In this document: positions 2,427 through 35,767 of the stretch, one piece after another
How the letters are laid out: every line of letters begins with the position of its first letter
Position numbering within the stretch: position 1 is the stretch's first letter
Assembly (NCBI GenBank): GCA_948823415.1
Contig: CAQKRU010000003.1
Location: 7,798 to 71,797, forward strand
DNA from: an uncultured Eubacteriales bacterium
GTDB taxonomy: Bacteria; Bacillota; Clostridia; Oscillospirales; Acutalibacteraceae
DNA: 64,000 bases
Direction: 5' to 3'
Made by a program: the position numbers and the translations under genes
Notes under the pieces: model-generated
The model's input: the letters and a program-made list of their open reading frames with translations, nothing else
The model's database searches: none
Told to the model about the DNA's origin: nothing

Positions 2427-3140
2427 ATGGAGAATAGCTTTGTTGAATTTGAGCAAATTTTGAAAAAAAGCAACCTTGAAATATCGGAGCAAATGGTCGA
2501 AATGTTCGAAAAATACGCAGATTTGTTAATAGAATGGAACAAAAAAATGAACTTGACGGCCATAACAGAACCGCGAGAAATCGCCGTTAAGCACTTTTTG
2601 GACAGCTTATTAACGCTTGACGTGTTTGAAATTCCGCACGGAGCAGCTGTTATAGATGTAGGCACAGGCGCGGGGTTTCCGGGAGTACCCATCAAAATTG
2701 TCCGGCCAGATGTTGACTTGACGCTGCTTGACAGCCTTAACAAGCGAATAAAGTTTTTGGAAGAATTGAAAAATTATTTGAAAGTTGATGTGAAGTTAAT
2801 TCACTCAAGGGCAGAAGAAGCGGCTCAAAAAGAAAATTTACGAGAATGCTTTGATGTCGCAGTATCACGCGCGGTTGCGCCTTTAAATGTTTTACTAGAA
2901 TATTGCATGCCGTTTGTGAAAGTTGGTGGAATTTTTGTTGCGCTAAAGGGTAAGAATTCCCAGTCTGAGCTAGATTTGGCTCAAAATGCGATGAAGGTTT
3001 TGAATGCAGAGATTTTCACACAAAAGAGTTTTAGTTTAGTGACTGAAAATGATCGAAATATAATTGTTTTTAAGAAAGTGGCGAAAAATTCGGAGATTTA
3101 TCCTCGAAATAGCGCGAAAATTAAGAAAAAACCATTATAA
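2427..3140 (+). CDS. rsmG: 16S rRNA (guanine527-N7)-methyltransferase RsmG (GidB)
   Basis: ATG at 2427 is preceded by AAAGGAG. The SAM-binding motif VIDVGTGAGFPG is present. Position directly after mnmG. Confidence 0.9.
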   Translation: MENSFVEFEQILKKSNLEISEQMVEMFEKYADLLIEWNKKMNLTAITEPREIAVKHFLDSLLTLDVFEIPHGAAVIDVGTGAGFPGVPIKIVRPDVDLTLLDSLNKRIKFLEELKNYLKVDVKLIHSRAEEAAQKENLRECFDVAVSRAVAPLNVLLEYCMPFVKVGGIFVALKGKNSQSELDLAQNAMKVLNAEIFTQKSFSLVTENDRNIIVFKKVAKNSEIYPRNSAKIKKKPL

Positions 3141-3256
3141 AAAAGCATAATTAAATTTCTAAAAGAGAAAAATTTTTTACCTACACAAAAGGGTAAGAAA
3201 TTCTTTTTTTTTATGTTATCATCGAGGTAAATCAGCGTTGCGCAGGGGGGATTCTT

Positions 3257-4081
3257 TTGTTTTGTTTTCAAAATTCGGACAAAATTCGCAGCATACCGGT
3301 GATCCAGATTGAGCCGAGTCGCTCTCAGCCGAGGATTTGCTTCTCTAAAGAGGCTTTGGCGGGACTTTCTCGGAGCATCAGGGAAAATGGGATCTTGCAG
3401 CCGATTTCGGTTAGGAGAGTTTTCGCATCTAAATTTGAGTTAGTTGCAGGAGAGAGACGTCTTCGAGCCGCGATAATGGCGGGATTTAAGACGGTTCCGT
3501 GCGTGATTTTGGATTGCGACGAGACTCAGGCGGCAGTTTTTGCTTTGTTAGAAAATTTGCAGCGAGCGAATTTAAACATGTTTGAAGAGGCCGAAGCGAT
3601 GCGGAATTTGATTGAAATTTGGGGATTGACGCAAGAATCAGCCGCGAAAAAGATGGGGAAAAAGCAGTCAACAATCGCGAACAAATTAAGACTTTTGAAG
3701 CTGGATGATGAAGAACGAGCATTGATAAAAAAGGCGAACTTGAGCGAGCGGCATGCTAGAGCCATTTTAAAGCTCGGAAGCAAGGAACAACGCAAATTGA
3801 TGATAAAAAAGATAGCTGAAAAAAATCTAAATGTGTTGGACACGGAAGCTTTAATTGAATCAATTTTGAAGGGCGACGTGTTAGGATCTTTTGAAAATTC
3901 TGATAAAAAATTTGTTGTTAAAGATTTAAACTTTTTTAAAAATGCTATCAATGACGCTTTGGACTTGATGAAGATATCTCGGGAGGGCGTACAGTATATT
4001 CACAACGAGACGGATGAATATTTGGAATATATGGTTAAAATCCCGAAGGGACGGGACTCTAAGAAGGTAGAAAGCGCATGA
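3257..4081 (+). CDS. ParB-family protein, Noc (nucleoid occlusion)-like by position
   Basis: ParB-box motifs (GILQPISVRR, LVAGERRLRAA) are present. TTG start 6 nt after a GGGGGG tract. It occupies the noc slot between rsmG and parA, but Noc versus a second ParB cannot be separated by eye. Confidence 0.75.
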   Translation: MFCFQNSDKIRSIPVIQIEPSRSQPRICFSKEALAGLSRSIRENGILQPISVRRVFASKFELVAGERRLRAAIMAGFKTVPCVILDCDETQAAVFALLENLQRANLNMFEEAEAMRNLIEIWGLTQESAAKKMGKKQSTIANKLRLLKLDDEERALIKKANLSERHARAILKLGSKEQRKLMIKKIAEKNLNVLDTEALIESILKGDVLGSFENSDKKFVVKDLNFFKNAINDALDLMKISREGVQYIHNETDEYLEYMVKIPKGRDSKKVESA

Positions 4082-4101
4082 TTTCTAGTTTGAGTCAAAG
4101 A

Positions 4102-4117
4102 TGTTTCACGTGAAACA
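4102..4117. promoter_or_regulatory. parS site (perfect TGTTTCACGTGAAACA)
   Basis: Exact palindrome in the noc-like/parA intergenic region. Confidence 0.85.
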
Positions 4118-4142
4118 TCTTTTTTTGCGCCCAGGTTTGCAA

Positions 4143-4158
4143 TGTTTCACGTGAAACT
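4143..4158. promoter_or_regulatory. parS site (TGTTTCACGTGAAACT, 15/16)
   Basis: Second copy 41 bp downstream of the first, in the same intergenic region. Confidence 0.75.
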
Positions 4159-4231
4159 TTTGAGATTTTTCTTGCAAAAAATTTTGTGTGTGGTATAATT
4201 AGTGTAAACCGTGAAAAAAAGGGGGCGCACG

Positions 4232-5014
4232 ATGAAGAAGATAATCGCGATAACGAACCAAAAAGGTGGCGTGGGAAAGACCACGACGGCGGTGAATTTG
4301 GCGGCCGCTTTGGGAAAGTCTAGGGAAAAAGTTTTGCTGGTGGACATGGATCCGCAGGGCAACACGACGAGCGGCGTGGGGGTTGACAAGGCGAAGCTGA
4401 AGTGCTCGGTTTATAACGTTTTGCTCGATGTGGACAGGGTCAATGAGGCCATTATCAAGACGGGCTTCGATAATTTGGACATTTTGCCTGCGAACATAGA
4501 TTTGGCCGGGGCGGAGATTGAGTTAGCGAATTTGGAGAATCGAGAGTCGAAGTTGAGCCAAGCAATCGCGCCAGTTCTGCGTTCGTATGATTACATTATT
4601 ATTGATTGCCCGCCCTCTTTGGGGCTGATCACCACGAATGCTTTGAGTTTTTGCGATTCCATTTTGGTGCCGATTCAGTGCGAGTTTTACGCTTTGGAGG
4701 GGCTTTCTCAGCTGATGAGCACGGTGCGCCTGGTTAAGCGGACTTATAATCCGGATTTGGACGTGGAGGGCGTGCTTTTGACGATGTTCGATGCGCGACT
4801 CAAGCTGAATCAGCAGGTGGCCGAGGAAGTCAAGAATTATTTCGATCAGAAGGTGTTCAAGACGTTCATTCCGCGGACGGTGAAGCTTTCGGAAGCGCCG
4901 AGCTTTGGGAAGCCGGCCATATATTATGATAAGCACGGAAAGGGCTCGCGCGCGTACTTGAAGCTGGCGAAGGAGCTCATAAAGCGCGCCAAGAAGAGGG
5001 GAGATGGCAAGTGA
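4232..5014 (+). CDS. parA: Chromosome partitioning ATPase ParA/Soj
   Basis: Deviant Walker A KGGVGKTT. ATG at 4232 follows a GGGGG tract. Its stop overlaps the parB start (ATGA). Confidence 0.95.
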   Translation: MKKIIAITNQKGGVGKTTTAVNLAAALGKSREKVLLVDMDPQGNTTSGVGVDKAKLKCSVYNVLLDVDRVNEAIIKTGFDNLDILPANIDLAGAEIELANLENRESKLSQAIAPVLRSYDYIIIDCPPSLGLITTNALSFCDSILVPIQCEFYALEGLSQLMSTVRLVKRTYNPDLDVEGVLLTMFDARLKLNQQVAEEVKNYFDQKVFKTFIPRTVKLSEAPSFGKPAIYYDKHGKGSRAYLKLAKELIKRAKKRGDGK

Positions 5015-7260: not shown

Positions 7261-8310
7261 TTACTCAATGTCCGCGCGGGCCCACTGGGCTAGCAGACAT
7301 GTGTAGATCTTGCCGGGCAGCATAGTGAGTGGGGTTCCGTCGTTAGTGAAGTAGGAGAATGGCGATGTATCGGTATCTCGGGCCCAGGTGATGTCGATGC
7401 ATTTGCCGTGAGAGATGTATTTTCCGGTGCCGCGGCCGATGATGTCGAGCGCGAGAAGCTCGGTATTATCGATGTTTTGGCCCGAAACGTTCATCAAAAT
7501 GATGTTCGGCTTGCTGTTCTGCCTTTTGACGTTGTCGTCCATCTGAGGGCGATTAAACTGGGAAATTAGGTAGGTCTGAGTGGGCTCGTCGTAGGCAAAA
7601 ACGGTGCTCTTGTAGCCCGAAAACTTAGCGGTGACCTTTGTAGCGGTCGTGCCGCCTAGAACTTGCGAATCATCGCCGAATCTCTGCGGGTAGGAGTAAT
7701 CCGTGTTCCACTGAGTGCGAAAATCGTGGGCTTTGATGCCCTCGCCGAGCTTCTCGCCAGACGTTAGGGCACTGTGCTCGAGACCCAGATTTTTACGTCT
7801 GGCCGGGTCTCGCCACATGAACTGACCCTTGATAAGGTCGATAGAATCGATGTAGCCGCTCTTCAGGATGCTGTAAGCGTGCGTGCTGCCGCCCAGGTGA
7901 ACGTAGATGGCGTCGAGGCTCTTAGCAATGCTGATGAAATACGGTCGAGAACTGCGCACGCTGCCGATGGCCGGAACTGCAGAGGGATCTTTAAACACGC
8001 CCAAAATCCGAGTTATACCGCCTTCTGTGGGGCATTCGTAAATTATATCTGCCTCTGTGACGCCTAGGAGGGGCTGTCCGGAATGCAGATTGTTTATCAT
8101 GATAGCTACGGGACGATTATTCACTTTGCCTGCGTCGACAGGGAGCCCGGTCAGAGGGTTTTTGCTCGGGTTTTCAGCACGGACTTCCTCGCTTTGTGAA
8201 TATTCTGTAACGGAATTATTTTTCTGATTTAGAAAAAAGAATCCGGCAGCTGCAACAATAATTATAATGGGAAAAACTGCCACAACAACGATTTTTGACA
8301 TATTTTTCAT
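7261..8310 (-). CDS. DUF3048 (YerB-like) membrane-anchored protein
   Basis: ATG at 8310 with GGAGG upstream. N-terminal TM segment, and the motifs NRPVAIMINN...ITRILGVF...VRSSRPYF resemble B. subtilis YerB. The longer ORF to 8595 lacks an RBS and overlaps the ppa start. Confidence 0.75.
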   Translation of the reverse strand: MKNMSKIVVVAVFPIIIIVAAAGFFFLNQKNNSVTEYSQSEEVRAENPSKNPLTGLPVDAGKVNNRPVAIMINNLHSGQPLLGVTEADIIYECPTEGGITRILGVFKDPSAVPAIGSVRSSRPYFISIAKSLDAIYVHLGGSTHAYSILKSGYIDSIDLIKGQFMWRDPARRKNLGLEHSALTSGEKLGEGIKAHDFRTQWNTDYSYPQRFGDDSQVLGGTTATKVTAKFSGYKSTVFAYDEPTQTYLISQFNRPQMDDNVKRQNSKPNIILMNVSGQNIDNTELLALDIIGRGTGKYISHGKCIDITWARDTDTSPFSYFTNDGTPLTMLPGKIYTCLLAQWARADIE

Positions 8311-10442: not shown

Positions 10443-13400
10443 TTAAGATATCGATAGAATTTCTTTCAGATTCGCGATGACAGTGAGCTTGGGGTCCGCC
10501 GTGACGCAGACGTGCGGCTTGGCAGTGGACTTTATGGTGATTCGCTTGCCCATGGTTTTTATGAATTTTTCGAGAAGTTTTTCGTCCAAATTGTTAGAAA
10601 AAAACAGGAAAGTGTTGTTCTGCTGGCGGATTTCGTAAATCCCGAGGTCCGAAGCGGTGTTGCGAATGAGCGCGATGTCAATCAGATTGCTCACACTCTC
10701 GGGCGGGTCGCCAAATCGGTCAATCAGCTCGTCAAAAACGTCCGTAGCATCGTCCTTAGAGCGAATATCCGAAATGCGGCGATAGATATCAAGCCGCTGG
10801 TTCACGTTCGAGATGTACCGTTCCGGAATATGAGCGCTAACCTGGACGTCCACAAGGCACTCGACCTCTAATTTTGCCGGCACGTCGCCCTTTTCAACGC
10901 GAACAGCATTCTCCAACAGCTTCAGATACATGTCGTAGCCCACGTCAGCCATGTGTCCGTGCTGCTCGCCACCAAGAATATTCCCGGCGCCACGCAGTTC
11001 GAGATCCCTCATCGCAATTTTGAATCCCGAACCAAACTCGGTAAACTCGCGAATTGCCGCAAGCCGCTTTTGCGAGATCTCGCTTAAAACCTTGTTGCGC
11101 TTATAAGTAAAGTAGGCAAAAGCGCGACGTTCTGAGCGTCCCACGCGGCCACGAATTTGATGAAGCTGCGCCAGACCAAGCCTATCGGCGTTTTCGATGA
11201 TCAAAGTGTTCACATTTGCAACGTCGACACCGGTTTCGATTATCGTCGTGCAGACTAGAATGTCGATTTTATGCTCGATCACGCCCTGCCACACGCGGGA
11301 AAGCTCCTGCTCGGACATCTTGCCGTGAGCAAAGCCGACCGTCGCCTCGGGAATCTGGCGTTGCAGAGCGGCCGCGGCTTGAGAGATGCTGCCGACGCTG
11401 TTGTGCATGTAGTAGACCTGGCCGCCCCGCCGCAGCTCCTTGCGAATCGCCTCGTTGATGATCGTTTGATTGTGCTCCAGAACGTAGGTCTGCACGGGAA
11501 CCCGATTCTGCGGGGCTTCCTCGATCGAGGACATGTCGCGGATCCCAGACATAGCCATATTTAGGGTGCGGGGAATGGGCGTTGCCGACAGCGTGAGGAT
11601 GTCGACGTTTTTAGCGATTTCCTTAAAGCGTTCTTTTTGCTTAACGCCGAACCGCTGCTCTTCGTCGATGATTACGAGGCCTAGATCGCGGAAGATCACG
11701 TCCTTTTGGACCATCCGATGCGTTCCGACGATGATGTCAATTTCGCCGCGCTTTAGGCGTTTTAAGATGGCCTCTTGTTGCCGTAGCGTCCGGAACCGCG
11801 AGAGCATCTCGATTTTCACTGGAAACGAGCGAAATCGCGAAAGGATTGTCTCAAAATGCTGCCAGGCCAAAATGGTCGTGGGCACCAGAATAGCGCACTG
11901 TTTGGAGTCGCAAACGCACTTGAACGCCGCCCGTAAGGCAACCTCTGTTTTGCCAAAGCCGACATCCCCGCACAAAAGCCGGTCCATGGGCACGATCCGT
12001 TGCATGTCCGCCTTTATTTCGTCGATGCAGCGCATTTGATCGGGCGTTTCGACGTACTCAAACTGAGCCTCAAAATCGCGCTGAAGCTCGCCATCTTCGG
12101 CAAAGGCGTACCCCTTTGCTCGCATGCGATCGGAGTACAGCTTGATGAGCTCTTTTGCGATGTCCTGAGTGGCCTTTTTCACGCGCGTCTTCGACTTTTG
12201 CCAGTCGATTGTGCCCAGTTTATTGAGCTTTACGCGAGTTTCTGCAGACGGACCGATGTATTTGTCGACCAAATCAAGCTGCGTAACAGGAACATAGAGC
12301 GTGTCGCCCTTCGCGTAGGAAATCTTGATGTAATCCTTCGCCACACCTTGCACCTCGAGCTTATGGACGCCGTTAAAAATGCCGATTCCGTGCAGGCTAT
12401 GAACGACATAATCGCCGACGTGGAGGTCAGAAAGGCTATAAATGCTAGTGGATTTATTTTTCTTTTTAGGAAAAATCTTCTGAGATTTGCCAGCATGACT
12501 ATAGGTAATGAGTGAAAAGTTAATTTCTGGATATTCAAACCCAGCCGAGAGCGTTCCAGGAGTGACAATTTTAACTCCGTTTGGTATATTTTTGGCATTT
12601 AATACAAATTGTATATTTTTATAAAGTGGTGTGAGGTCGAACACAATGCGGTTAGCAGCAGTTTCATCGCCAGCAAGAATCACAACAGATTGATCAACGC
12701 TCATAGAAGACAGATCTTCGCTCAAAAGATTAACACTTCCGCTCCAAGGCGCAATCTGACGGGCGTTAAAGGCAATATTTTTATCAATTGTCGAAAAACA
12801 ACTTTGAGTTAAAAACAAATCAAAATATACAGTTTGTTTATCATAAATAAAGGACAAAAAGTCAGATTTATCGAGCGAGAAGGATGTCAGACCATTGCAA
12901 AGCACGCCATCTTCTAGGTATAAGCGCAAACCTTCCTCCCATTGAGCCTGATGTGATCGCAGTTTTTCATCTATCTGAGCTTGCTCACATATGAATATCA
13001 TCGCATTTGACGGCAAATAATCCAGCAAAGTCCCAGGAGAGTCGTATATAAGCGAGATAAATTTATCGCGAGACCCGATATTACCTGTGTTCTGCAAGCA
13101 TTCTATTTCTGCACTTAAAGTATTAATCGCCTTTTCAACAGATTTACTTGATTCCAGACGTTTTTGAAGTTTGCTCATTTTTGCCAAAAGTTTAGAAGTG
13201 TCGCTAATGACGACCTCATGGGCCGGAGTGATGTTTATAACGTCAACTTTTTCGGTCCGGCGCTGGTCCGCAATATCAAAAAAGCTCATAGAGTCGATTG
13301 CGTCGCCCCAGAACTCAATTCGGACAGGCCTATTACTATTTGTTGAAAAGATATCTAAAATTCCTCCGCGTAGAGAAAATTGCCCCGGGCCTTCAACCTG

Positions 13401-17801: not shown

Positions 17802-19178
17802 CTAAATTTTAATTTTTTCGGCGATGTAGTCGACCAGCTTATCGATAGAAACGCGCTCCTGCTGCATGGAGTCGCGGTGGCGCACGGTGACACAGCTGTC
17901 GGCCTCGCTGTCGAAGTCATACGTGACACAAAATGGCGTGCCGATCTCGTCCTGGCGGCGATATCTCTTGCCAATGGAGCCGGCCTCGTCGTAGTCGACC
18001 GTGAAGTGCGCGGAGAGCTGACTGTAGACCTTGCTAGCGCCGTCGCTTAGTTTTTTCGATAATGGGAAAATGGCTGCCTTAAATGGTGCCAAATTCGGGT
18101 GAAGCCTCAACACTACGCGAGTATCACCGTCTTCGGTGGTTTCTTCGTCGTATGCATCGCAGAGGAACGCCAGTGCGACCCTGTCCGCGCCCAGTGAAGG
18201 CTCGATCACGTATGGAATGTAGCGCTGGTTGGAGTCGGGGTCGAAGTACTCGAGGCTCTTGCCGGAGTGCTCTTGATGCTGCGTCAGATCGAAGTCGGTG
18301 CGATCGGCAATGCCCCAAAGCTCGCCCCATCCGAACGGGAACAAGAATTCGATGTCGGTAGTGGCCCGCGAATAGTGCGAAAGCTCCTCTTTAGAGTGAT
18401 CGCGAAGCCGAATGTTATCGGACTTTAAGCCCAAGTTCAAGAGCCAGTTTTTGCAAAAATCGCGCCAGTAGTTGAACCATTCAAGGTCCGAGCCGGGCTT
18501 GCAAAAAAACTCAAGCTCCATCTGCTCGAACTCACGCGTGCGAAAGATAAAATTGCCCGGAGTAATCTCATTGCGAAAGGACTTCCCGATCTGAGCGATG
18601 CCAAAAGGCAGCTTGCGCCGGGATGTGCGCTGAACATTAGCGAAATTCACAAAGATACCCTGCGCTGTTTCGGGCCGCAAGTAGACCTCATTCTTCGCGT
18701 CCTCGGTCACGCCTTGAAAAGTCTTAAACATCAGGTTAAACTTGCGAATATCAGTGAAGTTCGCGGCGCCGCAGACCGGGCAAACAACGTGATGCTCCGT
18801 TATATAGGCGTTCATCTGATCAAAAGGCATGCCGTTGGCGTCACCACCGGCGCTCTCGATGAGTTTGTCCGCCCGATGCCGAGTTTTGCATTCTCTGCAG
18901 TCCATCAAAGGGTCAGAGAAATTGCCCAAATGCCCCGAAGCGACCCAAGTTTGAGGGTTCATCAAAATAGCAGAATCCAGCCCCACATTGAGCTTGCTTT
19001 CGCGAATGAACTTCTGGCGCCAGGCATCCTTAATATTATTCTTAAACTCCACGCCCAACGGGCCGTAGTCCCAGGAGTTCGACAAACCGCCATAAATCTC
19101 GGACCCAGGGAACACAAAGCCTCTGTTTTTGCACAGAGCCACGATTTTTTCCATAGATTTTTCGCTGTTTAATAGCAT
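17802..19178 (-). CDS. glyQS: Glycyl-tRNA synthetase (single-chain class II GlyQS)
   Basis: 458 aa with motifs throughout, such as LRPETAQG and [25 protein letters not shown]. Confidence 0.95.
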
Positions 19179-19204
19179 GAAAAAGGCCTCCTTTTGCTGA
19201 CAGT

Positions 19205-19234
19205 ATTATAATTCAGCAAGGAGGAACTTGTCAA
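19205..19234 (-). promoter_or_regulatory. Sigma-70-type promoter of glyQS (TTGACA-N18-TATAAT)
   Basis: Read on the minus strand: TTGACAagttcctccttgctgaatTATAAT. GGAGG and the ATG follow about 25 nt downstream. Confidence 0.7.
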
Positions 19235-19283
19235 TTGCCTAGTATATATTGAATAACCGGGGAAAATTATTGTCTTCGTTAAA

Positions 19284-25694: not shown

Positions 25695-28685
25695 TTAGTC
25701 GTCGATAACGTCTACGTTTACCTCATTATTATCGTCGTCGTCATTGTCGGTATTGGTTTCATTCAGACTTTTCTTTAGCCTCCTAGTAGGATTAACTTTT
25801 TTTGCTCTTTTCTTTATTGTTTTCGTTGTTTTCGTAGGACGGTTAACAAGCCGTTTTTTCTTACTTGTCGTTTTTTTCGGTTTGCTCTCTTCTTCATTAT
25901 TGGCATTGTTATTCTGATCTACATCGTCATCGTCGTTACCATTTATAACGTCGCTTTTTATCTCTTGAGTATCTTTACTATCGTCAATATCATCTTTTTC
26001 GTCATTGTTATTCAAGTCATCACTTTTACTTTCACTGCTTGCAACTTCTTTGTTACTCTTGTTGTCGTTATCTTTAGTATCAATTGAATGGAGTTTTCCC
26101 TTATAAATATATGACACGCCAGTATTTTCATCTATAATTAATTCGTCTGCATTAAGCTCCACTTTATTGAGATCACTCATATAATACCGCCATTCATCTC
26201 TTAGATCCTTAAAAGCAAAATGTCCAATCGTAGCCTTTTTACAAATTAGAGGTGCATTAAATTTTTCAAGGTTTTTGGTCAACGCAAACGCTTGTTCACC
26301 CACATAAAATGTTTCACAATTTTCCGGGCAAGTAACACTTTTCATATTAGAACACTCAAAAAATGCTTCTTTTTCCAAAATTAATTCATCTACGTTTTCT
26401 GGAAACTCTAACGATCCTAAATTTATGCAACTAGCAAAAGCACCTTCTCCGATATTTATTTTATTATACTTGCTTTTCGTATTAAAAATTATATCCTCAA
26501 GTGTATTCATATATCTAAAAGTGTTAGACTCTATAGTTATATTCTCTTGCCCACCCTCAAAAATTATTTTCTTAAGTTTTCTCATATGTCGAGCGTAATT
26601 ATCCCGATTACCGTAGAAGTCTTCAGGTAACGAACATATAGTAATATTTTTTGCATCTTCTGCTATTGTTACTTTTTCTAAATCCTTATTAAAACCAAAT
26701 CGATTTGCTAGACAAATTTTCTCAACTGAAAACTTGTTTCCGTTTTCATCAAATACTTCTCCATGTATCGTGATATCTTTTACATTTCTTTTATACAAAA
26801 ATGGATAAAAAACACCATTATCATCAGAATAATATGCGTTTTCATCATTATCAAATAGAATACTTTGGGGTAAATTCGCATACTTTTTCTTATGCCGAAT
26901 ATCATCAGTGGCTTTTCTTATTAAAAAGGTGTTTAGTTTGCTTTTTGATTTAGGTTGTAATTTATCCCAATCTCTATTATTGTGTTTTAGATCACTTACA
27001 AGTTCAAAGCACTTGTCAATACCAAAATATGTCTTGCCTTTAAAATCTTCTACTATGTTCTCGTTGATAAGTATAAACTTTAATGCTTGTTCAAGTTCAA
27101 ACCTTTTGTTACATCCAGAATTGTAGACATTGTTTCGTTGGTAAATTTTTGAAAATGTAAAAAATTCAGATTTAGGCATAGGCTCGCCATCATATTTAAA
27201 TAATAAACCATTGTCACTAATAGCAATATCAATCTTATTTGGGTCCATATTATCATATTTTTCATACTCTTTTAAAAATTTGTCTACTTTATCTTTTTCC
27301 GCCTTAGGAAGGTTTTCCAAAGCATCTTGGTTTTCCTCAAGCGTATCATTAATTTCTTCAAGAAGTTTTGCGGAAAGTTGTTCCATTGGGTTTTCGTTCA
27401 AAACTAGACACTTTAGAGCTTTGCTTAAATACCTAGCGTTTTTAGGAAAATAGCCAAGGCCACTTTCTTGGAATTTATTCACAAATGCAAAAAAATTAGA
27501 TTCAGTCATAGGTTCATAATTCTTATCATGATTCTTACTATATTCATATACTGTCTCATTGTCGTCAATCTTAATACGAATCCATACCGGATCTATATTG
27601 TTCAAGTCTATTCTGTCATTTTTTTCTCCATCATCATAATTATCGTTATTATTACTGTTGGCTGTTTCCATAGCTTTTTTCGTAGCCATTGAGGTTTGAT
27701 TTTCATCGCTACTGCTATTGTCGCTGCCTGCTGTGTTTTTGTCGTCGGTAACGCTGACGGTTGTCTCATTATTATCGTTGTCATCATCGTCGACATTGGT
27801 TTCATTTAGATGTTCCTCTGTCTCAGTAGAAGTAGAATTAACCTTTTTTGCTTTATTACGACGTTTAAAACGCCTTTTTTTCTTACGTGTCGTTTTTTCC
27901 GTTGTCGGTTTGCTATCTTCTTCATTATTACCATCACTATTCTGGTTTATATTGTCCTCATCTATGTTATTATTTTCTGCTCCATCATCATAATCATTGT
28001 CATTACTATTCGTAGCCATTGAGATTTGATTTTCATCGCCACTGCTATTATCTGTGCTTGATGTGTTTTTGTCGTCGGTAACGCTGATGGTTGTCTCATT
28101 ATTATCGTTGTCATCATCGTCGATATTGGTTTCATTTAGATTTTCCTCTGCCTCAGTAGAAGTAGAATTAACCTTTTTTGCTTTATTACGACGTTTAAAA
28201 CGCCTTTTTTTCTTACTTGTCGTTTTTTTCGTTGTCGGTTTGCTCTCTTCTTCATTATTAGCATCGTTATCGTCATTTTCTGATGATGACCCTTTGCCTG
28301 TTTGTGATGTACCGGGTTTTCCGCCCGTTCCTTTCCTACCATTTCTAGCTGCAAAGGATTCTAGGCCCATTCCAGCAAACATGGAAAAAGCCATAATTCC
28401 AAGACCGAGCAGTGGTTTAATTGCAATTCCCCGGCCACCGCTGACATTTGCCAAATCTTCGTCAGATAATTCTTTTAGCATTTCTTTCTCATACTCGAGC
28501 AGCTCTTGTGCCGAAAAGTCCACATTAAACTTCTTCATAAGCGGCATTATTTCTTCGCAAATTAACTGTCTTAAATCTTCCTCATTTGCGATTTCCTTCG
28601 CCTTATCTTCGATTCTTTCTTTCGATTTAGGATCCGAAAGTATTTGCCGATAAAATTCCTCGATTTCTTTTTTTCTATCTTCCAT
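25695..28685 (-). CDS. 996-aa protein: Nif11-like double-glycine leader, TM segment, tandem acidic/basic repeats and a BspA-type leucine-rich-repeat region
   Basis: AGGAGGAGG RBS. Residues 1-84 end ...ELSDEDLANVSGG. LRR-like units occur in residues about 640-860, for example NITIESNTFRYMNTLEDIIF and INIGEGAFASCINLGSLEFPENV. Confidence 0.85.
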   Translation of the reverse strand: MEDRKKEIEEFYRQILSDPKSKERIEDKAKEIANEEDLRQLICEEIMPLMKKFNVDFSAQELLEYEKEMLKELSDEDLANVSGGRGIAIKPLLGLGIMAFSMFAGMGLESFAARNGRKGTGGKPGTSQTGKGSSSENDDNDANNEEESKPTTKKTTSKKKRRFKRRNKAKKVNSTSTEAEENLNETNIDDDDNDNNETTISVTDDKNTSSTDNSSGDENQISMATNSNDNDYDDGAENNNIDEDNINQNSDGNNEEDSKPTTEKTTRKKKRRFKRRNKAKKVNSTSTETEEHLNETNVDDDDNDNNETTVSVTDDKNTAGSDNSSSDENQTSMATKKAMETANSNNNDNYDDGEKNDRIDLNNIDPVWIRIKIDDNETVYEYSKNHDKNYEPMTESNFFAFVNKFQESGLGYFPKNARYLSKALKCLVLNENPMEQLSAKLLEEINDTLEENQDALENLPKAEKDKVDKFLKEYEKYDNMDPNKIDIAISDNGLLFKYDGEPMPKSEFFTFSKIYQRNNVYNSGCNKRFELEQALKFILINENIVEDFKGKTYFGIDKCFELVSDLKHNNRDWDKLQPKSKSKLNTFLIRKATDDIRHKKKYANLPQSILFDNDENAYYSDDNGVFYPFLYKRNVKDITIHGEVFDENGNKFSVEKICLANRFGFNKDLEKVTIAEDAKNITICSLPEDFYGNRDNYARHMRKLKKIIFEGGQENITIESNTFRYMNTLEDIIFNTKSKYNKINIGEGAFASCINLGSLEFPENVDELILEKEAFFECSNMKSVTCPENCETFYVGEQAFALTKNLEKFNAPLICKKATIGHFAFKDLRDEWRYYMSDLNKVELNADELIIDENTGVSYIYKGKLHSIDTKDNDNKSNKEVASSESKSDDLNNNDEKDDIDDSKDTQEIKSDVINGNDDDDVDQNNNANNEEESKPKKTTSKKKRLVNRPTKTTKTIKKRAKKVNPTRRLKKSLNETNTDNDDDDNNEVNVDVIDD
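27681..28265. repeat. Two about 255-bp near-identical coding repeats (period about 330 bp) inside the 996-aa gene; a third diverged copy lies at about 25790-25905
   Basis: 27681-27935 versus 28010-28265 align with few mismatches. They encode ...EEESKPTT.KTT.KKKRRFKRRNKAKKVNSTSTE.EE.LNETN.DDDDNDNNETT.SVTDDKNT... Confidence 0.85.
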
Positions 28686-29311: not shown

Positions 29312-29983
29312 ATGAAAAATATCTTAAAAATCAAGAAACTTTCTTCAGCATTGTTAGTTGGAACTATTGTGATAGGAAGCAGCTCTATGACTGTAAAGGC
29401 TGCGTATAAAGGAAGCCCTAGTATGACAATCTATAATTTAGCCTCTGGAGCAAACCCTGAAGGCCATAATTACAAAGATATTCCTATTTTAGAGTTTAGT
29501 GAGGAAACCGGGGAAAGTAGAATAACAATTGAGAGCTATGAAAATTCTGATGATAGCGTTGAACGTTTTGCCGAAGGAAACGGGGAATGGTTTATTTTTA
29601 ATGGGAAAAAGATACCGAAATCCACTCGTATTGGGGATGTACACCCAAATGGAAGTAATATGCTTATTGTTGTTAACGGAAACCCCGATAAGCCTGCTGA
29701 TGAAGTTTGGGAAGAGACCGAGTACGACAGAGGTCAAATACTAGTAAATAAAAAACGTGTTGATCTTGACAGTAAAGAGGAAGAAAAACTGGGAGAGGAT
29801 AACGTATATCGGAAGGAACCAATATATGAATATCCTTATCTAAAAACAGGTAAACATCAAGTTAGGTTTATTAATGGCCAGAGAGTGGACGAAGACAAAA
29901 ATTTTGGAGATTATGAAAACGTAAATGGAGATAATAGCGTTATTGTTTATACTAGTAATGATCCAAACGCTCTTCCACAATAA
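29312..29983 (+). CDS. Exported protein, family C member 1 (unknown)
   Basis: AAGGAGAaataaaaATG. Signal peptide MKNILKIKKLSSALLVGTIVIGSSSMTVKA. Confidence 0.7.
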   Translation: MKNILKIKKLSSALLVGTIVIGSSSMTVKAAYKGSPSMTIYNLASGANPEGHNYKDIPILEFSEETGESRITIESYENSDDSVERFAEGNGEWFIFNGKKIPKSTRIGDVHPNGSNMLIVVNGNPDKPADEVWEETEYDRGQILVNKKRVDLDSKEEEKLGEDNVYRKEPIYEYPYLKTGKHQVRFINGQRVDEDKNFGDYENVNGDNSVIVYTSNDPNALPQ

Positions 29984-30079
29984 AAAATTTAAAAAAGTAT
30001 TTATGGTTAATACCCCATTTGCAAAGCGTTTTGCTTAGCAGAACGGGAGCCGACATCAATTTATAAAGGAGAAATAAAA

Positions 30080-30781
30080 ATGAAAAATATGTTAGGAATA
30101 AAGAAGATTTCATCGATACTGTTAGTTGGAACTATGGCGGTAGGAAGCAGTGCTATGGGTGCAAAAGCTTCAAACAATAATTATTGGCGTTCTAAAAATA
30201 ATTACATGTTTTATGACCCTAATGACCCAAATGAGCCCTTTCAAGTCCATGGCTTTGGCAGAATTGATAAGAATGAACTTATAAAAAACTCAGTACTTCA
30301 GGGGGAAGAAGAGGAGCTGAAATATTATCAAAACGGAAAAGAGATAAGCCCATATACTTATACTGAGAAAGTAACAGGATCTGACGATATGCTTATTGTT
30401 ACCAATGACACAGACAGACCTAAAGATAAAGTTTATGAGGAAACAAAAAAAGCAATAACGGAAAGAAAAGAAGTAGATCTTACTGTACTTAATAAAGATA
30501 CGAAAGAGACAAAAAGCTACACTCTAGATGTTTCGCCATACGAAAGTATGGATGATGTCTCGGACAGTTTTTTAACCGACAAATATGGTAAAAAATATCC
30601 ATCGTATTACTTTTCTTATAACGGTTTATATACTGATACAGGTCTTAAAGCAAGCGATGTGGATACTAATAAATATGGGAATATAAATATAGGCATAGGC
30701 TCTCATGATTCTGAGGAAGAGGAAGATAATTCCAATATTGTTGATTATTATTGTAACTGTTTAACACAGAAGAAGGGGTAA
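30080..30781 (+). CDS. Exported protein, family C member 2 (paralog), C-terminus ...DYYCNCLTQKKG*
   Basis: Same RBS string. Signal peptide MKNMLGIKKISSILLVGTMAVGSSAMGAKA. Shares the motif MLIV.N...D.P.D.V.EET. Confidence 0.7.
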   Translation: MKNMLGIKKISSILLVGTMAVGSSAMGAKASNNNYWRSKNNYMFYDPNDPNEPFQVHGFGRIDKNELIKNSVLQGEEEELKYYQNGKEISPYTYTEKVTGSDDMLIVTNDTDRPKDKVYEETKKAITERKEVDLTVLNKDTKETKSYTLDVSPYESMDDVSDSFLTDKYGKKYPSYYFSYNGLYTDTGLKASDVDTNKYGNINIGIGSHDSEEEEDNSNIVDYYCNCLTQKKG

Positions 30782-30805
30782 GGGTTTACATCAGGAAATA
30801 TTAAA

Positions 30806-30838
30806 GGCGGTAGCATAAAAACTACCGCCCTTTTTATT
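30806..30838. terminator. Rho-independent terminator between convergent genes
   Basis: Stem GGCGGTAG/CTACCGCC with an 8-nt loop and a T-tract. Confidence 0.7.
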
Positions 30839-30913: not shown

Positions 30914-31390
30914 CTATTTTTCTGGGAATTCAACTTCTATGTTGTTAAGATTATTTTCTTTATCGCAGTCATCATCATAATACTTTTCCATAGCTCGTGC
31001 TTGCGAACGTTTAATTTCGGATTCAAGTTCTTTGATTAATTTATTAGAGTCACTGAGAACTTTTGTTCTTATTAGATCTTTTTCATTTTCGGAGGCGGAG
31101 TTCCACCTGTTACCGGATGCAAATTTTTCGCTTAAAAATTCAGCATTTAATTTTATACAGGACTCCTTGTAAGTAGGATCGAGTTTTTCAAATTTTTCAT
31201 TTTGCTTTTGATTTAAAGGTGACAAATACAAATTTTTTGCAATAGATCTTATTTTATCTGGATCTTCTGGCAAACTAGCACTTACGGTATGGCCGATTAA
31301 TGGACACAAAAATGAAAGAACACACCCAAACAAGATGGCCTTAACCGAAATTTTCTTTTTCACATTTAAACTTGACATACTTTTTTTCAT
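30914..31390 (-). CDS. Exported helical protein, family B member 1; C-terminal YYDDDCDKENNLNNIEVEFPEK*
   Basis: Signal peptide MKKSMSSLNVKKKISVKAILFGCVLSFLC. AGGAGA RBS. Confidence 0.7.
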   Translation of the reverse strand: MKKSMSSLNVKKKISVKAILFGCVLSFLCPLIGHTVSASLPEDPDKIRSIAKNLYLSPLNQKQNEKFEKLDPTYKESCIKLNAEFLSEKFASGNRWNSASENEKDLIRTKVLSDSNKLIKELESEIKRSQARAMEKYYDDDCDKENNLNNIEVEFPEK

Positions 31391-31415
31391 AACATTATCT
31401 CCTAATAGGTTTTAT

Positions 31416-32258
31416 TTAATCCAAAAATGTATCCCAATACGGGTCTTTTGCGATACCTTCACAGTCCCAATCAACATATTTAGAAGCCTGCTCATTTAAT
31501 TCATTAATATTTTCTTTAAAATATTGATTTTCTTTAGCAATTTTTAAATCATATTCATTTTGTGCTTTGGTGTTATCTTCTTCAAGCTTTTTACGCGCGT
31601 TTTCTAAGCGTTCTTCTTTTTTCTTTGGAGAAAGCTTTTTACCATTATTTATTGCTTCTACGGACTGATTATATTCCTCGTTGTTATTGTATAACCCCAA
31701 CTGTAAATCTCGGTCTAGCTGGGATTTATTTTCCAAATTCTCATAAAGCATAGCTGCATAATCTTCATCGTATGATGGGTAATCCCCGCCATGCATCCTT
31801 GTTTGCAGCCTTACTTCTTTATTGAACTCATTAACCTTATCGTTAAAGCTATTAATTTCGTCAATATACCTCTGTTTTTCTTTGAGCAAACCATTGCCAA
31901 AATTTTTGAAAACAGTTTCTGCCTCATCTCTTTTAGATGGAGGAATATAGTTTCCTAAATTCTTGTGTGTTTCATCGTATATATTATAAACATTTTGGTA
32001 ATGCTTCGAAAATGATTGTTGAACCTCATCTTTAGCGTTTGGGTAACATCCGAAGCCTGCAATATCTGGGAGGTCCTCATTGGCGATTATAGCTAATGTA
32101 GCGAAATGAAGTGAGTTATCTTTGCTATTACGATTAAAAGACGCGAAAACGCGATTATCACAACAAGTTGTAGTTGAGGCTAAGATTGAAAGCCCAAACA
32201 AAATGGCTTTAACCAAAATTTTCTTTTTTGCATTTAAACTTGGTGTACTTTTTTTCAT
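31416..32258 (-). CDS. Exported helical protein, family B member 2; C-terminal ...VDWDCEGIAKDPYWDTFLD*
   Basis: ATG at 32258 after AGGAGA. Signal peptide MKKSTPSLNAKKKILVKAILFG. Confidence 0.7.
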   Translation of the reverse strand: MKKSTPSLNAKKKILVKAILFGLSILASTTTCCDNRVFASFNRNSKDNSLHFATLAIIANEDLPDIAGFGCYPNAKDEVQQSFSKHYQNVYNIYDETHKNLGNYIPPSKRDEAETVFKNFGNGLLKEKQRYIDEINSFNDKVNEFNKEVRLQTRMHGGDYPSYDEDYAAMLYENLENKSQLDRDLQLGLYNNNEEYNQSVEAINNGKKLSPKKKEERLENARKKLEEDNTKAQNEYDLKIAKENQYFKENINELNEQASKYVDWDCEGIAKDPYWDTFLD

Positions 32259-32328
32259 AAAATTATCTCCTAACAAAATTTAAAAATTTCAACTCACTAA
32301 AAAATAATAATTATATTAACCGGTAGGT

Positions 32329-32868
32329 CTATTTCTTTACTGGATATTCAACCTGTACACGGTTCAAATTGAGTTCTTTATCGCAATCGTCATCACGATA
32401 TTCTTTATGATTCCTAGCTCTCTCTTGTAATTTTTTAAGTTCATCGTTGTATTTTTGCTGTGCAGCCTTCCAATCAGAATTTACACTGTGCCCATATTTT
32501 TTAAAGTAGTCTAACTTCCAATCAGAATTTGCACTGCGCCCATATTCTTTAGGGGAGGCTAAATATTGATACTCCATATTCAATATCTCAAAATGTTTTT
32601 TTGCACATTCAATCTTTGCGGATATCTCGTCATTTTTGTAGTCAGGATCCAAAGTCTCAAAGAATTCATGCTGCGCTGAGTTTTTAGAATATTCATATTC
32701 TGCAAATCCCTTCATTTGCTCGTCGTCTTTTGGAAACGGTGCATCATACATTGCCGGGCTGGCGACGTTATTAAACATTAACGCAGGGCACAAAATTGCA
32801 CACCCAAACAAAATGGCCTTAGCCAAAATTTTCTTTTTTGCATTTAAACTTGACGTACTTTTTTTCAT
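32329..32868 (-). CDS. Exported helical protein, family B member 3; C-terminal YRDDDCDKELNLNRVQVEYPVKK*
   Basis: ATG at 32868. The 5' region is nearly identical to member 2. Confidence 0.7.
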   Translation of the reverse strand: MKKSTSSLNAKKKILAKAILFGCAILCPALMFNNVASPAMYDAPFPKDDEQMKGFAEYEYSKNSAQHEFFETLDPDYKNDEISAKIECAKKHFEILNMEYQYLASPKEYGRSANSDWKLDYFKKYGHSVNSDWKAAQQKYNDELKKLQERARNHKEYRDDDCDKELNLNRVQVEYPVKK

Positions 32869-32966
32869 AAAATTATCTCCTAACAAAATTTAAAAATTTC
32901 AACTCACTAAAAAATAATAATTATATCAAACGGCAGGTTGATTTTTAACAATACTGTTATCACTAC

Positions 32967-33689
32967 TTACGAGTAGTCAAAGTCTATGAGCCCAAAATTG
33001 AGTTCCCGATCACAGTCATCATAATAGTAAGTTCTATCACTATCAACTTCAGAGTTATTGCTATTGGTTACTGGATATTCAACATTTAGGCTCCTCTGAG
33101 CAGGTTTATCGCAGTCATCACATTTAATACCATTGAACTCAGTAAATAAACCTTCTCCTGGCTTGTAACGAAGAATGGAAATTTCAGGATACTTGTTTAT
33201 AATATTATCTTTATCGTAGTCAACATTATTATGAATAATCACAGTGTTAGTTCCAGGAGGAAAGTCCACGTCAGAATTAACCCTTGTAATTTTAATAGAA
33301 TAACCATCACCAGATGTATAAGACAAACCTACCTGTTCTGGGACAACCACAACTCCATTATCATTTTCCTTAATTGCTTTGAGGGAAACCGGGTTATTCA
33401 AGGTATCGGCATCAAACTGTTCGTTTGAGTTAACAGTATTAACAGGTTCAAACTCCGCGGTATTAATCACTATTTTTTGGTAATTAGACACAGGATCAAC
33501 AGGTTCAGCGGAGGTGTCGCTATAAACAGGCGAATTAAAAAGAAAAGTATATCCGCACTCAAAATCTCCGTTTTCCAAGCGTTCTACTTCACCTAAACAA
33601 GCATAGCTTGGAAGAGCTAATGCAGATGAAAGGCTACATATAGCCAGTGCCGTGGTCGACAAATTGCGCAAAAAGTTTTTCTTTTTCAA
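32967..33689 (-). CDS. Exported protein, family D member 1, with two copies of the DDCD motif at its C-terminus
   Basis: TTG start after AAGGAGAG. Signal peptide MKKKNFLRNLSTTALAICSLSSALALPSYA. C-terminus ...CDDCDKPAQRSLNVEYPV...YYYDDCDRELNFGLIDFDYS*. Confidence 0.65.
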   Translation of the reverse strand: MKKKNFLRNLSTTALAICSLSSALALPSYACLGEVERLENGDFECGYTFLFNSPVYSDTSAEPVDPVSNYQKIVINTAEFEPVNTVNSNEQFDADTLNNPVSLKAIKENDNGVVVVPEQVGLSYTSGDGYSIKITRVNSDVDFPPGTNTVIIHNNVDYDKDNIINKYPEISILRYKPGEGLFTEFNGIKCDDCDKPAQRSLNVEYPVTNSNNSEVDSDRTYYYDDCDRELNFGLIDFDYS

Positions 33690-33853
33690 AAAAATCTCTC
33701 CTTAAAAATGATATTAAAGAAATTGTAGTACAAACTGTAGAAAAAAGCAAGAATTTTTTATGGATTTTACAGAGTCTAAACTTATTGGTGAAAAAAAGCC
33801 CCGATGAAAACTTTCTCATCGGAGCTTAACCGTTGTTAACTTAATACAATATT

Positions 33854-34324
33854 TTAAGCGTTATTATTGTTGTAAGGTAAAAGTAAAGAAATCCCAGGAT
33901 TGTTTTCTCTAATTTTAGCCTCGTCGAATTCGGCCTCATCAGGAAAAACTAAAGTTTTAGTGTTAGGAAATTTTGCGTCAGAATTAATTTTTGTAATTTT
34001 CATTTTGTTTCCATTAATAACTTCAACATCTTCAGGAATAACTACGATTTGGTTGTTGTTTTCTGTAGATCCCGTAACGGCTATAGACGAGCCCCAGATA
34101 CTATCTGCTTCATAGGTTAGTGTGCAATGGCTATCTTTTTTAAAAACAATTTGTTTGTCCTCCCCAATAACAGGAAGGGCATTAGACGTGCTGGCGGGCT
34201 TAGTAAGCGTAAGCTTAGGGCCTTTATTTAATGACGCAGAGCTTGGAAGAGCTACCGCAGAAGAAAGGCAGCATATAGCCAGTGCCGTGGCCGACAAACT
34301 GCGCAAAAAGTTTTTGTTTTTCAA
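33854..34324 (-). CDS. Exported protein, family D member 2 (no DDCD tail)
   Basis: TTG start. Signal peptide MKNKNFLRSLSATALAICCLSSAVALPSSA. Shares VV.PE.V...KIT..NSD..FP with member 1. Confidence 0.65.
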   Translation of the reverse strand: MKNKNFLRSLSATALAICCLSSAVALPSSASLNKGPKLTLTKPASTSNALPVIGEDKQIVFKKDSHCTLTYEADSIWGSSIAVTGSTENNNQIVVIPEDVEVINGNKMKITKINSDAKFPNTKTLVFPDEAEFDEAKIRENNPGISLLLPYNNNNA

Positions 34325-34511
34325 AAAAATCTCTCCTTAAAATGATACTAAAGAAATTATAATATCGGATGTAGAAAAAAGCAAGCATTTTTTGTGAATT
34401 TTACAGAGATTTAAAATTGTTGCGCAGAATTTAAGTTTATTGTATAATACTAATATATTTATTTTTAAAAATAGAAATAATTTAAACACAACACACATTT
34501 TTGCGAAAGAG

Positions 34512-35423
34512 GTGATTGCGATTATTACGGTAGAAGAGTGGAATTCGCAGAACGACGCCGTTTATAAGCCATTTTTGGTGGATAGAATCAATGATGGCGG
34601 CGAAGATTTTGTCGCATATGGCGCCAAATGTGGGAATATTCCGTGCGGAGCGATATATGCAAGGCTAGAGAAGTCCGATGTGGGCGGGCGAACTCAGGCG
34701 AACGTGACGAGCTTTTTTGTTGCCTCTTTTTTTAGAGAAAAGGGCGCCGGAACGGCTTTACTGGACGCGCTCAAGCTTAGATTGAAAGACCTGAACGTAG
34801 ATGCCATCCGGGTTAACGCGGTTACTTCGCAGGAAAACGTCGATCTGATAGACAAATTTTTGCAAAAGAGAGGATTTTCACCCGCCAGACTGCTAACAGA
34901 GGTCTATTTGTTTGATCCGAAAGTTCTGGTAGAGAAAAATAAAATCATAAAATCGGCGCTGCAGGGCAGTTTTGACCTGCCACCGAAAATATCTTTTTTG
35001 CCAAAAAACCTTGTGAGCCCAGATTTACTCGAGAAGGTCAAAAATAAGGATGGCATAGATTATCCGGATGTGCTGTCTCCGTTTGCAAATGAGTTCAACT
35101 TGGACGACGAATGCACTCAGTTTGCGATTTTTGACGACAGCGAGATCGTCGGTTGGGTGACGGCTTTTCGCGTTAAAGAGAGCGCAATCCTGTATCGGTC
35201 GCTGTTTATTCGGGAAGACTACCGAAAAAAGGCCCTAGGCTTTGCGCTTTTGGGAGAATGCATAAAAAAGCATGTGGCGAAGTATTCCGATAAAATGGTG
35301 CTTTATGCGGTCGCGTTGGATAATTTAAACGCCAGAAAGCTCTTTTCGGTCTGCTTTAAGCACTATTATAAGAGCAAAAAGTACGAATTTGAGGCGATTA
35401 TGGACCTTCGGCAAGGTTTCTAA
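34512..35423 (+). CDS. Tandem-GNAT N-acyltransferase (start uncertain; ORF open from 34440)
   Basis: Two motif-A-like segments, FFREKGAGTALLDAL and IREDYRKKALGFALLGE. The extended -10 TGTATAAT at 34440-34448 argues that the TTG at 34440 is promoter rather than start codon. Confidence 0.7.
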   Translation: MIAIITVEEWNSQNDAVYKPFLVDRINDGGEDFVAYGAKCGNIPCGAIYARLEKSDVGGRTQANVTSFFVASFFREKGAGTALLDALKLRLKDLNVDAIRVNAVTSQENVDLIDKFLQKRGFSPARLLTEVYLFDPKVLVEKNKIIKSALQGSFDLPPKISFLPKNLVSPDLLEKVKNKDGIDYPDVLSPFANEFNLDDECTQFAIFDDSEIVGWVTAFRVKESAILYRSLFIREDYRKKALGFALLGECIKKHVAKYSDKMVLYAVALDNLNARKLFSVCFKHYYKSKKYEFEAIMDLRQGF

Positions 35424-35524
35424 ACCTAATATATATATAAATTTTTGGACAAGCCCTAGCATCGACGGGCTTTTGTTATATGTTTTTTGCGGATATTACG
35501 AAAATTTTACGTGGAGGGATTGCT

Positions 35525-35767
35525 ATGGAAAACATTGAGAGGACGGTTCGAGAGGAACTTGGCAAGATTGTGGAGGCCGACGTGATGGCTGTCTCGGCGG
35601 ATGAAGACATCACGAAGCTATCTCAGATGGACTCTTTGAGCGTTTTGGAGCTTATGGACATTATTGAGGAACGTTTTGATATTGAAATTTCTCTGGGAGA
35701 AATTTCTAAAATAAGGACAATAGCCGACGTGGTGCGACTTATTTTGGCGCGGGTAAAAAAAGACTAG
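35525..35767 (+). CDS. Stand-alone acyl/peptidyl carrier protein
   Basis: 80 aa with a GGAGGG RBS. The phosphopantetheine-site context QMDSLSVLELMDIIEERFDIEI is present. Confidence 0.8.
   Translation: MENIERTVREELGKIVEADVMAVSADEDITKLSQMDSLSVLELMDIIEERFDIEISLGEISKIRTIADVVRLILARVKKD

Follow-up and report, generated by a model that had tools for sequence, protein, structure and literature searches.

Sorting tags of the LPXTG/sortase, PEP-CTERM/exosortase, GlyGly-CTERM/rhombosortase and MYXO-CTERM kind are common to many proteins per genome, occur in many taxa and come with a cognate enzyme. Dockerin (PF00404) is a short acidic C-terminal module on diverse Sec-exported proteins of Clostridia, composed of two repeats of ~20 residues and a short linker, and the variable surface lipoproteins of Mycoplasma and Borrelia are encoded in tandem families with conserved ends, hypervariable cores and recombination. 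Here we analyse a stretch of 64,000 nucleotides from an uncultured Eubacteriales bacterium of the Acutalibacteraceae (forward-strand positions 7,798 to 71,797 of contig CAQKRU010000003.1, assembly GCA_948823415.1; this whole stretch is the window, and positions refer to it unless another sequence is named), in which several small genes for predicted exported proteins share a C-terminal peptide, the DDCD tail. We find that this 20-residue tail is a genuine, new sequence motif, that it is confined to a very narrow lineage of two species, and that the peptide is under purifying selection while the bodies to which it is attached evolve fast.

The DDCD tail resembles the sorting tags in that a conserved short C-terminal motif stands on signal-peptide proteins with unrelated bodies, and a first-pass annotation of the window had likened it to LPXTG, PEP-CTERM and GlyGly-CTERM. 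That analogy did not survive the searches described below: the tail has neither the transmembrane (TM) helix nor the basic tail of these tripartite signals and matches no NCBIfam model, and it is known from ~10 instances in two species, where sorting tags reach dozens per genome and span phyla. The likeness to dockerin extends to the arrangement of two ~20-residue repeats with a short linker, as in the proteins D1 and P0009 described below, and to the role proposed here, in which varied cargo would be docked to one partner. The two differ in that the tails give no credible Pfam match (run with the isolated tails, single and double, hmmscan gave spurious zinc-finger matches only at E <= 10), lack the D-x-[DN]-x-D-G Ca2+ loop (position 1 is D, Y or F, position 6 is K, R or N, and position 12 is not acidic), mostly occur as single units and have an invariant Cys; we know of no cohesin-like partner for the DDCD tail. 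With the Mycoplasma and Borrelia families the locus has in common tandem arrays, near-identical 5' promoter and signal-peptide segments, mosaic genes, frequent pseudogenes and a ratio of non-synonymous to synonymous substitution (dN/dS) of the bodies around or above 1. Unlike those families, the array products do not appear to be lipoproteins, the Cys in their h-region offering no usable lipobox on inspection, and their C-terminal element is a discrete 20-residue peptide that comes in several alternative classes.

Results

A conserved tail on fast-evolving bodies

The tails are encoded within a minus-strand run of five successive small genes, D2, D1, B3, B2 and B1, and all features of this run given below lie on that strand. 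B1 (30914-31390; 158 aa) has a Sec-type signal peptide, a K/E-rich, predicted helical body and a class-1 tail, YYDDDCDKENNLNNIEVEFPEK (30917-30982), followed by the stop codon; it is identical to P0013, and its ortholog in L001, the same rpoB-adjacent locus in the sister genome MGBC113434 (GCA_948527295.1) with a larger B array, is 76% identical in the body. B3, equal to P0001, has 179 aa counted from its real ATG at 32868 (gene 32329-32868, open reading frame (ORF) 32329-32886) and ends with YRDDDCDKELNLNRVQVEYPVKK (32332-32400) and the stop. D1 (32967-33689; 240 aa) combines a D-family signal peptide and a predicted beta-rich body with a double tail of the B type, in which an internal copy, KCDDCDKPAQRSLNVEYPV (33069-33125; one codon shorter and divergent in the middle), is joined by the 13-residue linker TNSNNSEVDSDRT (33030-33068), homologous to NNDNNSEVDSDRA in P0009, to a C-terminal copy, YYYDDCDRELNFGLIDFDYS (32970-33029), and the stop. 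The tails of B1, B3 and D1, including the internal copy in D1, are all present where the first-pass annotation had placed them. The degenerate version that it had noted in B2 (31416-32258, 280 aa from the ATG; ORF 31416-32276; ending VDWDCEGIAKDPYWDTFLD) exists as a peptide, KYVDWDCEGIAKDPYWDTFLD (31419-31481), but belongs to a distinct class 2: only its first half is motif-like, its second half follows a pattern common to other B genes (..DPYWDTF[LW]D before the stop, DPYWDTFWD in P0003), and its Cys is Tyr in the L001 ortholog.

The tail, of ~20 residues, has the consensus Y-[YRS]-[DYF]-D-D-C-D-[KRN]-E-[LN]-[NK]-[LFW]-[GN]-x-[IV]-x-[VF]-[ED]-[YF]. The last 24 residues have a net charge of -2 to -6 and two to six aromatic residues, with no hydrophobic anchor. 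The motif lies near the C-terminus but is not strictly terminal, as the first-pass annotation had it: VEY is followed by 0-10 residues (none, S, L, PEK, PVKK or PVKKSTRLLI), and each of the 10 copies in four genomes either stands 0-10 residues before the stop or is the leading member of a tandem pair at the terminus. In the window, three matches to a degenerate DNA pattern for DDCD[KRN]E, seven codons and [VF][ED][YF] compare with none in 100 shuffles.

Six residues of the tail (Y1, D4, D5, C6, D7 and E9) are invariant across eight copies, and at each of them both synonymous codons are used. Most pairs of tails approach saturation at synonymous sites (proportion of synonymous differences, pS, 0.45-1.0) with a proportion of non-synonymous differences (pN) of 0.15-0.30, and three phylogenetically independent pairs gave one-sided Fisher p values of 0.0018, 0.020 and 0.00025. 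Comparison of the window with L001 yielded a dN/dS of 0.06-0.30 for the tails versus 1.2, 0.54 and 1.8 for the bodies of B1, B2 and D2, respectively. Purifying selection acts on the tail peptide, and the bodies evolve fast; the result is solid in direction, not in magnitude. Gene conversion does not explain the conservation of the peptide, since tail DNA is far less alike between copies (61-71% identical) than the adjacent junctions (up to 92% in the window). For the bodies of B1 and D2, the values above 1 (window 30914-34324 against L001 8561-13245) come from small counts and suggest that exposed parts of these proteins are under diversifying or relaxed selection. We also considered a constraint acting on the DNA, such as a promoter -35 element or an invertible repeat within the tail, and rejected it: the extended -10 lies past the stop, synonymous sites vary freely, and the tail DNA has no meaningful inverted repeats.

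Tails move between genes at conserved junctions

The first-pass annotation had described the bodies of the B and D proteins as unrelated. This holds for D against B alone, the D body being unrelated to those of the B proteins. B1 and B3 are homologous: with signal peptide and tail removed, BLASTP aligns the two bodies at 27.5% identity over 109 aa (E = 7e-6), and a match between the B3 body and the B1 ortholog of L001 has E = 2e-7, so that B1 and B3 are diverged paralogs. Within the D family, D2 (33854-34324; 156 aa), P0010, P0011 and the D1-like gene of L001 have different endings and no class-1 tail, and the absence of the tail from D2, P0010 and P0011 argues that it is not native to this family.

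The origin of the D1 tail can be read from a recombinant tract of 363 nt (32758-33120, minus strand) that is 88.9% identical to L001 13969-14334 over 368 aligned positions. In the window it takes in the D1 double tail, starting at the first DDCD, then the stop codon, the promoter and ribosome-binding site (RBS) between the genes, and ~110 nt at the start of B3; in L001 it joins the 3' end of a B pseudogene to the start of the B gene that follows. The pseudogene product, P0009, has the same double tail, ending ..YSYDDCDKELKLGHIKVEYPVNNDNNSEVDSDRAYYDDDCDRELNFGLIEVEYL. The tract matches a junction between B genes, and we conclude that D1 gained its B-type tail by homologous recombination anchored in the conserved gene junction. 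The module shuffling proposed in the first-pass annotation is borne out by this tract, in which tail, promoter and start of the next gene together are 89% identical to a B-type junction of the sister genome. The proposal had started from a 14-mer shared by B3 and D1, ACTGGATATTCAAC, which is found at 32339-32352 as given and at 33070-33083, one base off the position first reported.

The junctions themselves are conserved, with repeats 86-95% identical within and between genomes. The B3/B2 junction module (32182-32334, minus strand), composed of an extended -10-like TATAAT, an AGGAGA RBS and signal-peptide codons, matches 32792-32944 at 92% identity and 31314-31466 at 62%. B3 also has an internal 48-nt tandem duplication (32467-32562, minus strand; 85% identity), coding for ..GRSANSDWKLDYFKKY and GHSVNSDWKAAQQKY.

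A further carrier, P0008 of L018 (Logan SRR24951076), is 70% identical to D1 overall by BLASTP, yet the 3' ends and tail DNA of the two are near-identical, and on this pattern the P0008 gene is a mosaic. P0008 ends ..GIKFDD, and we considered it as a tail-less ancestor of D1. This was ruled out when L018 8260-8573 was compared with window 32860-33200: the codon of the first motif Cys has changed from TGC to the nonsense codon TGA, and the whole tail still follows downstream in nearly identical DNA. The ending of P0008 is, from this alignment, a recent truncation in another strain. In two other carriers, a B gene of L001 (13298-14125) and an E gene of L007 (2746-3096), a signal-peptide ORF is parted from the tail ORF by a stop or frameshift; these would be either pseudogenes or assembly errors in the metagenome-assembled genomes (MAGs).

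The E family extends the tail to a second locus, on another contig of MGBC113434 and also in MGBC113401. Its 122-aa carrier (P0015, in L009) has a different signal peptide and body and ends with YYDDDCDNELNWGNIMVEY, and its homology to the B and D tails is essentially limited to the motif, so that the class-1 tail is present on three signal-peptide families. The neighbours at this locus are, all by inspection only, a HemW-like radical S-adenosylmethionine (SAM) ORF (CxxxCxxC) and RlmH-, metallo-beta-lactamase (MBL)-fold- and MurA-like ORFs; the radical-SAM-like ORF reads as a housekeeping HemW-like gene.

Together, the alignments show tails to have been exchanged between genes, evidently by homologous recombination anchored in the junctions. 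Tandem paralogs with near-identical 5' junctions are accompanied by mosaic genes or recombination tracts and by fast-evolving bodies, and these comparisons place the tail in a multigene system of small Sec-exported proteins that recombines, evolves fast and has a few alternative tail classes. The same observations could be given a plainer explanation, in which the tail is the functionless C-terminal end of one paralog family that was spread and homogenised with the junction DNA by recent duplication or gene conversion. B1 and B3 are indeed distant paralogs in their bodies, the D1 tail did arrive within the 363-nt tract, the arrays are full of junction repeats at 85-95% identity, several carriers are pseudogenes and the distribution is extremely narrow. 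We nonetheless hold this explanation to be quite unlikely, as recent homogenisation is at odds with synonymous sites near saturation between tail copies whose key residues are invariant, with the lower identity of tail DNA than of the junctions, with tails that are more constrained than their bodies, and with an E-family copy that shares essentially the motif alone.

The tail is confined to a narrow lineage

To our searches the tail matched no described family, in keeping with the first-pass annotation, which had likened it to no tag in every feature and called it a candidate new one. Pfam, NCBIfam and PHROG scans of the whole island proteins gave nothing relevant to the motif, the C-terminal signal models of NCBIfam/TIGRFAM matched no island protein at E <= 1, the PDB sequence library had no match to profiles of either the B family or the tail, and a literature search turned up no description of such a motif. 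Neither choline-binding repeats (PF01473) nor other Gram-positive wall-binding modules were matched in Pfam, and the tail comes in only one or two units per protein. Readings as an EF-hand, a dockerin, a choline-binding repeat or a CX3D ranthipeptide were ruled out by spacing and model scores, and the carriers do not resemble precursors of ribosomally synthesised and post-translationally modified peptides with a C-terminal Cys core (ranthipeptide/SCIFF-like), which need a leader peptide and an adjacent radical-SAM or other maturase. They have Sec-type signal peptides, and in and beside the island the Pfam matches were to GNAT and BspA-type leucine-rich repeats (LRRs), while the homologous gene in both L001 and L018 is annotated as PP-binding (acyl-carrier protein, ACP).

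Whole-protein searches with B3 and D1 across 5.8 billion clusters returned six matches each, all from the same organism group and most through the signal peptide only. A 24-position tail profile run against 1.84 billion representatives at 50% identity gave five matches at E <= 0.001, of which four are true and of this lineage (P0009, B3, B1 and P0015) and the fifth is a spurious 11-residue tandem repeat; a word-indexed search of the tail alignment against 5.8 billion proteins produced 88 word candidates, none at E <= 10, and is uninformative beyond rarity. With a degenerate 48-nt DNA pattern, 185,579 species genomes (one per species) yielded seven loci. Three are real, in the two MAGs MGBC113434 and MGBC113401, both titled 'uncultured Eubacteriales bacterium', and four are chance CDDCD strings resembling zinc ribbons, in agreement with an estimate of ~4 chance matches. 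The same pattern matched six times in JGI metagenome contigs, in every case by chance (internal positions, no YY prefix, no ELN). All public data searched hold ~10 copies of the motif. From the MGBC label of the MAGs we read a mouse-gut origin for both species. The first-pass annotation had itself named restriction to local paralogs as what would undo its proposal, and the narrow lineage goes most of the way to this without reaching it fully.

These numbers bear on the possibility that the tail is a true sorting or processing tag, which a dedicated enzyme encoded elsewhere would cleave, cross-link through the Cys or modify, for example by lipidation, after Sec export. In its favour, the motif is C-terminal, under purifying selection and present on three signal-peptide families, its Cys and acidic neighbours are invariant, many neighbouring array proteins end in conserved Cys motifs of their own (DLCP..KC.LI or Cys at position -4), and a pair of genes for a double-GNAT protein and an acyl-carrier protein stands beside the array in every strain seen. 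Against it, ~10 substrates in two species contrast with the many substrates and wide distribution of known tag systems, a TM helix and a basic tail are both lacking, and the stretch after VEY varies from 0 to 10 residues. There is no match to a sortase, exosortase, rhombosortase or CPBP protein among the scanned window ORFs (38688-64000, from rpoB onward, unscanned), no candidate processing enzyme in L009 or L007, within loci of up to ~20 kb, and no non-array gene common to both loci. GNAT and acyl-carrier proteins are cytoplasmic, moreover, and their adjacency may be plain synteny beside rpoB. On balance we regard a processing tag as decidedly improbable.

Cysteines, export features and predicted structure

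All five array proteins have a Lys-rich n-region and a hydrophobic core of 15-20 residues by inspection and Kyte-Doolittle hydropathy. No TM-like segment follows the signal peptide, as no 19-residue window past residue 45 exceeds a mean Kyte-Doolittle value of 1.6 in B1, B3, D1 or P0015, and a basic tail is absent from the motif carriers; both absences had been noted in the first-pass annotation. A lipoprotein reading of the B signal peptide (LFGC) was rejected by inspection, the Cys lying inside the h-region, five residues past the last Lys. An invariant Cys in exported proteins is noteworthy against the exclusion of cysteine from exported proteins reported for aerobic Firmicutes (Daniels et al. 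2010, PMC2823432), which serves here as context, not evidence, since that paper covers aerobic Firmicutes only and anaerobes lie outside it.

AlphaFold2 models B3 with a helical body (mean predicted local distance difference test (pLDDT) per 10-residue block 65-84 at residues 51-100 and 75-80 at 131-150) and a tail (residues 157-179) in which all but one residue have a pLDDT below 50; for D1 it predicts a beta-rich core and gives the tail block means of 21-29. With mean pLDDT values of 56.5 and 43.7, the two models are too weak for fold searches.

The cysteines raise another possibility, namely that the tail folds back on the helical body and that its Cys is bridged to a body Cys by a disulfide or a metal, capping or stabilising the protein. 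Mature B1 (C78, C142) and mature B3 (C88, C162) have exactly two cysteines each, and conservation among B proteins reaches ~20 residues upstream into the last helix, as such an element would lead one to expect. Yet the mature E-family protein has a single Cys, the same tail occurs on the unrelated beta-rich body of D1, there also in tandem double form, AlphaFold2 places no tail on a body with any confidence, and the Cys is replaceable by Tyr in B2-type tails. We consider an intramolecular element unlikely.

The locus and neighbouring arrays

The array lies in a low-GC stretch at ~20-38 kb of the window (32-40% GC versus 44-53% in the flanking sequence on both sides), within a region that is otherwise housekeeping, between gidA/gidB/parAB/serS/mfd and rpoB/rpoC. 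Past B1, the array ends in a terminator-like hairpin (30803-30832, minus strand). The genes for a double-GNAT acetyltransferase (327 aa) and a small acyl-carrier-like protein with a DSL motif (34440-35767, plus strand) separate the array from rpoB in all strains seen; the latter protein is annotated as PF00550 in L001 and L018.

Several further arrays of small exported proteins occur in this organism, also at 19284-25042 and 29312-30781 of the window. By a hand count, ~14 of ~35 small signal-peptide proteins in the arrays have a Cys exactly four residues from the C-terminus, in a CaaX-like position (CAIC, CSPQ, CILL, CELQ, CLLI, CNPQ, CNIA, CNLI, CSLT and CNVA, each before the stop), an enrichment far above chance. 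Several of these proteins, with three different signal-peptide families, have another class of tail, [GN]DLCP-x(0-4)-KC-x-L-[ILT] before the stop. Proteins with one or the other ending are encoded in the window at 19960-20253, 20393-20737 and 20856-21206 on the minus strand and at 23837-24346 on the plus strand, in L001 at 12135-12704, 19127-19456 and 19587-19991, in L009 at 15-476, 503-928, 965-1948, 3134-4006 and 4038-4853, and in L007 at 137-664 and 1169-2191. In one L001 protein ending ..KCLLI, the last codons, TTG ATA TAA, overlap the -10 box of the next gene, TTGATATAAT. CaaX motifs are like the DDCD tail in that one Cys within a C-terminal peptide invites suspicion of a function, and the C-x-x-x endings of the neighbouring array proteins bring them to mind; the DDCD Cys, however, stands 13-23 residues from the end and has acidic, not aliphatic, flanks.

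A 996-aa ORF (25695-28685, minus strand) has a leader of the Nif11-like or double-glycine type, ..ELSDEDLANVSGG, which scores 16.4 bits with the NCBIfam model bacteriocin_sig (cutoff 15.7), together with BspA-type LRRs (PF13306) and long acidic/basic repeats of 330 nt. A bacteriocin-style export leader on a protein of this size is unusual, and no C39-peptidase ABC transporter was found among the scanned window ORFs. Another low-GC array (58895-60590, plus strand) encodes three paralogous small exported proteins (MFKKV.S.CLSAAVA...), helical and with several Cys, and the class-1 tail is absent from all three.

Discussion

The reading that we favour, tentatively, is that the DDCD tail is a short linear module, shuffled by recombination, that, once the protein is exported, would be a common handle for docking or retention, a function that we infer. 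The absence of a TM or basic anchor, the low AlphaFold2 confidence in the tail, the tolerance of 0-10 trailing residues and the tandem duplication with a 13-residue linker make an interaction handle acting after export its most likely role. The tail might then be common to proteins that otherwise vary, and dock their bodies to one shared partner, either a component of the cell surface or each other. Its Asp-Asp-Cys-Asp-x-Glu cluster could allow metal-assisted or thiol/disulfide-assisted binding, and the I-x-V-x-Y stretch could supply a beta-strand for pairing. Such a tail would be a docking peptide, in the manner of dockerin or another non-covalent anchor, and not a sorting signal that is cleaved.

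Several points weigh against a docking handle. Its partner, its metal binding and its localisation are proposals, as is the role itself. The acidic tail is no obvious ligand for the anionic wall of a Gram-positive cell, and exactly two Cys in mature B1 and B3 also fit an intramolecular disulfide. The counts of synonymous and non-synonymous differences come from only 19 codons, with ~9 synonymous sites per pair, and the AlphaFold2 alignments held only 4-6 rows, so that low confidence in the tail is no proof of disorder. Three of the ~10 carriers are defective, through the nonsense codon in L018 and the splitting of the genes in L001 and L007, which implies that some strains can do without the tail or without the genes.

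A bolder proposal would see in the DDCD tail a new signal by which a monoderm bacterium anchors or modifies proteins at the C-terminus through the Cys, with recombination swapping tail classes, as alternative address labels, between variable cargo proteins; we think this a long shot. The Cys-at-minus-4 and DLCP..KC.LI endings of the neighbouring array proteins could fall under the same system, in which, for example, the adjacent GNAT-ACP pair or an enzyme whose gene lies elsewhere would lipidate the thiol or attach the protein covalently.

A striking C-terminal peptide shared within a single island offers weak grounds for proposing a new sorting system before its wider distribution has been checked. 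With two uncultured species and ~10 genes, the practical reach of the DDCD tail is small. If the tail is a docking handle, a gut commensal would hold a single function in attachment or interaction steady as the exposed bodies diversify under selection. Recombination at conserved junctions would do the swapping, and the array may then offer a compact Gram-positive example of cargo-plus-address modularity.

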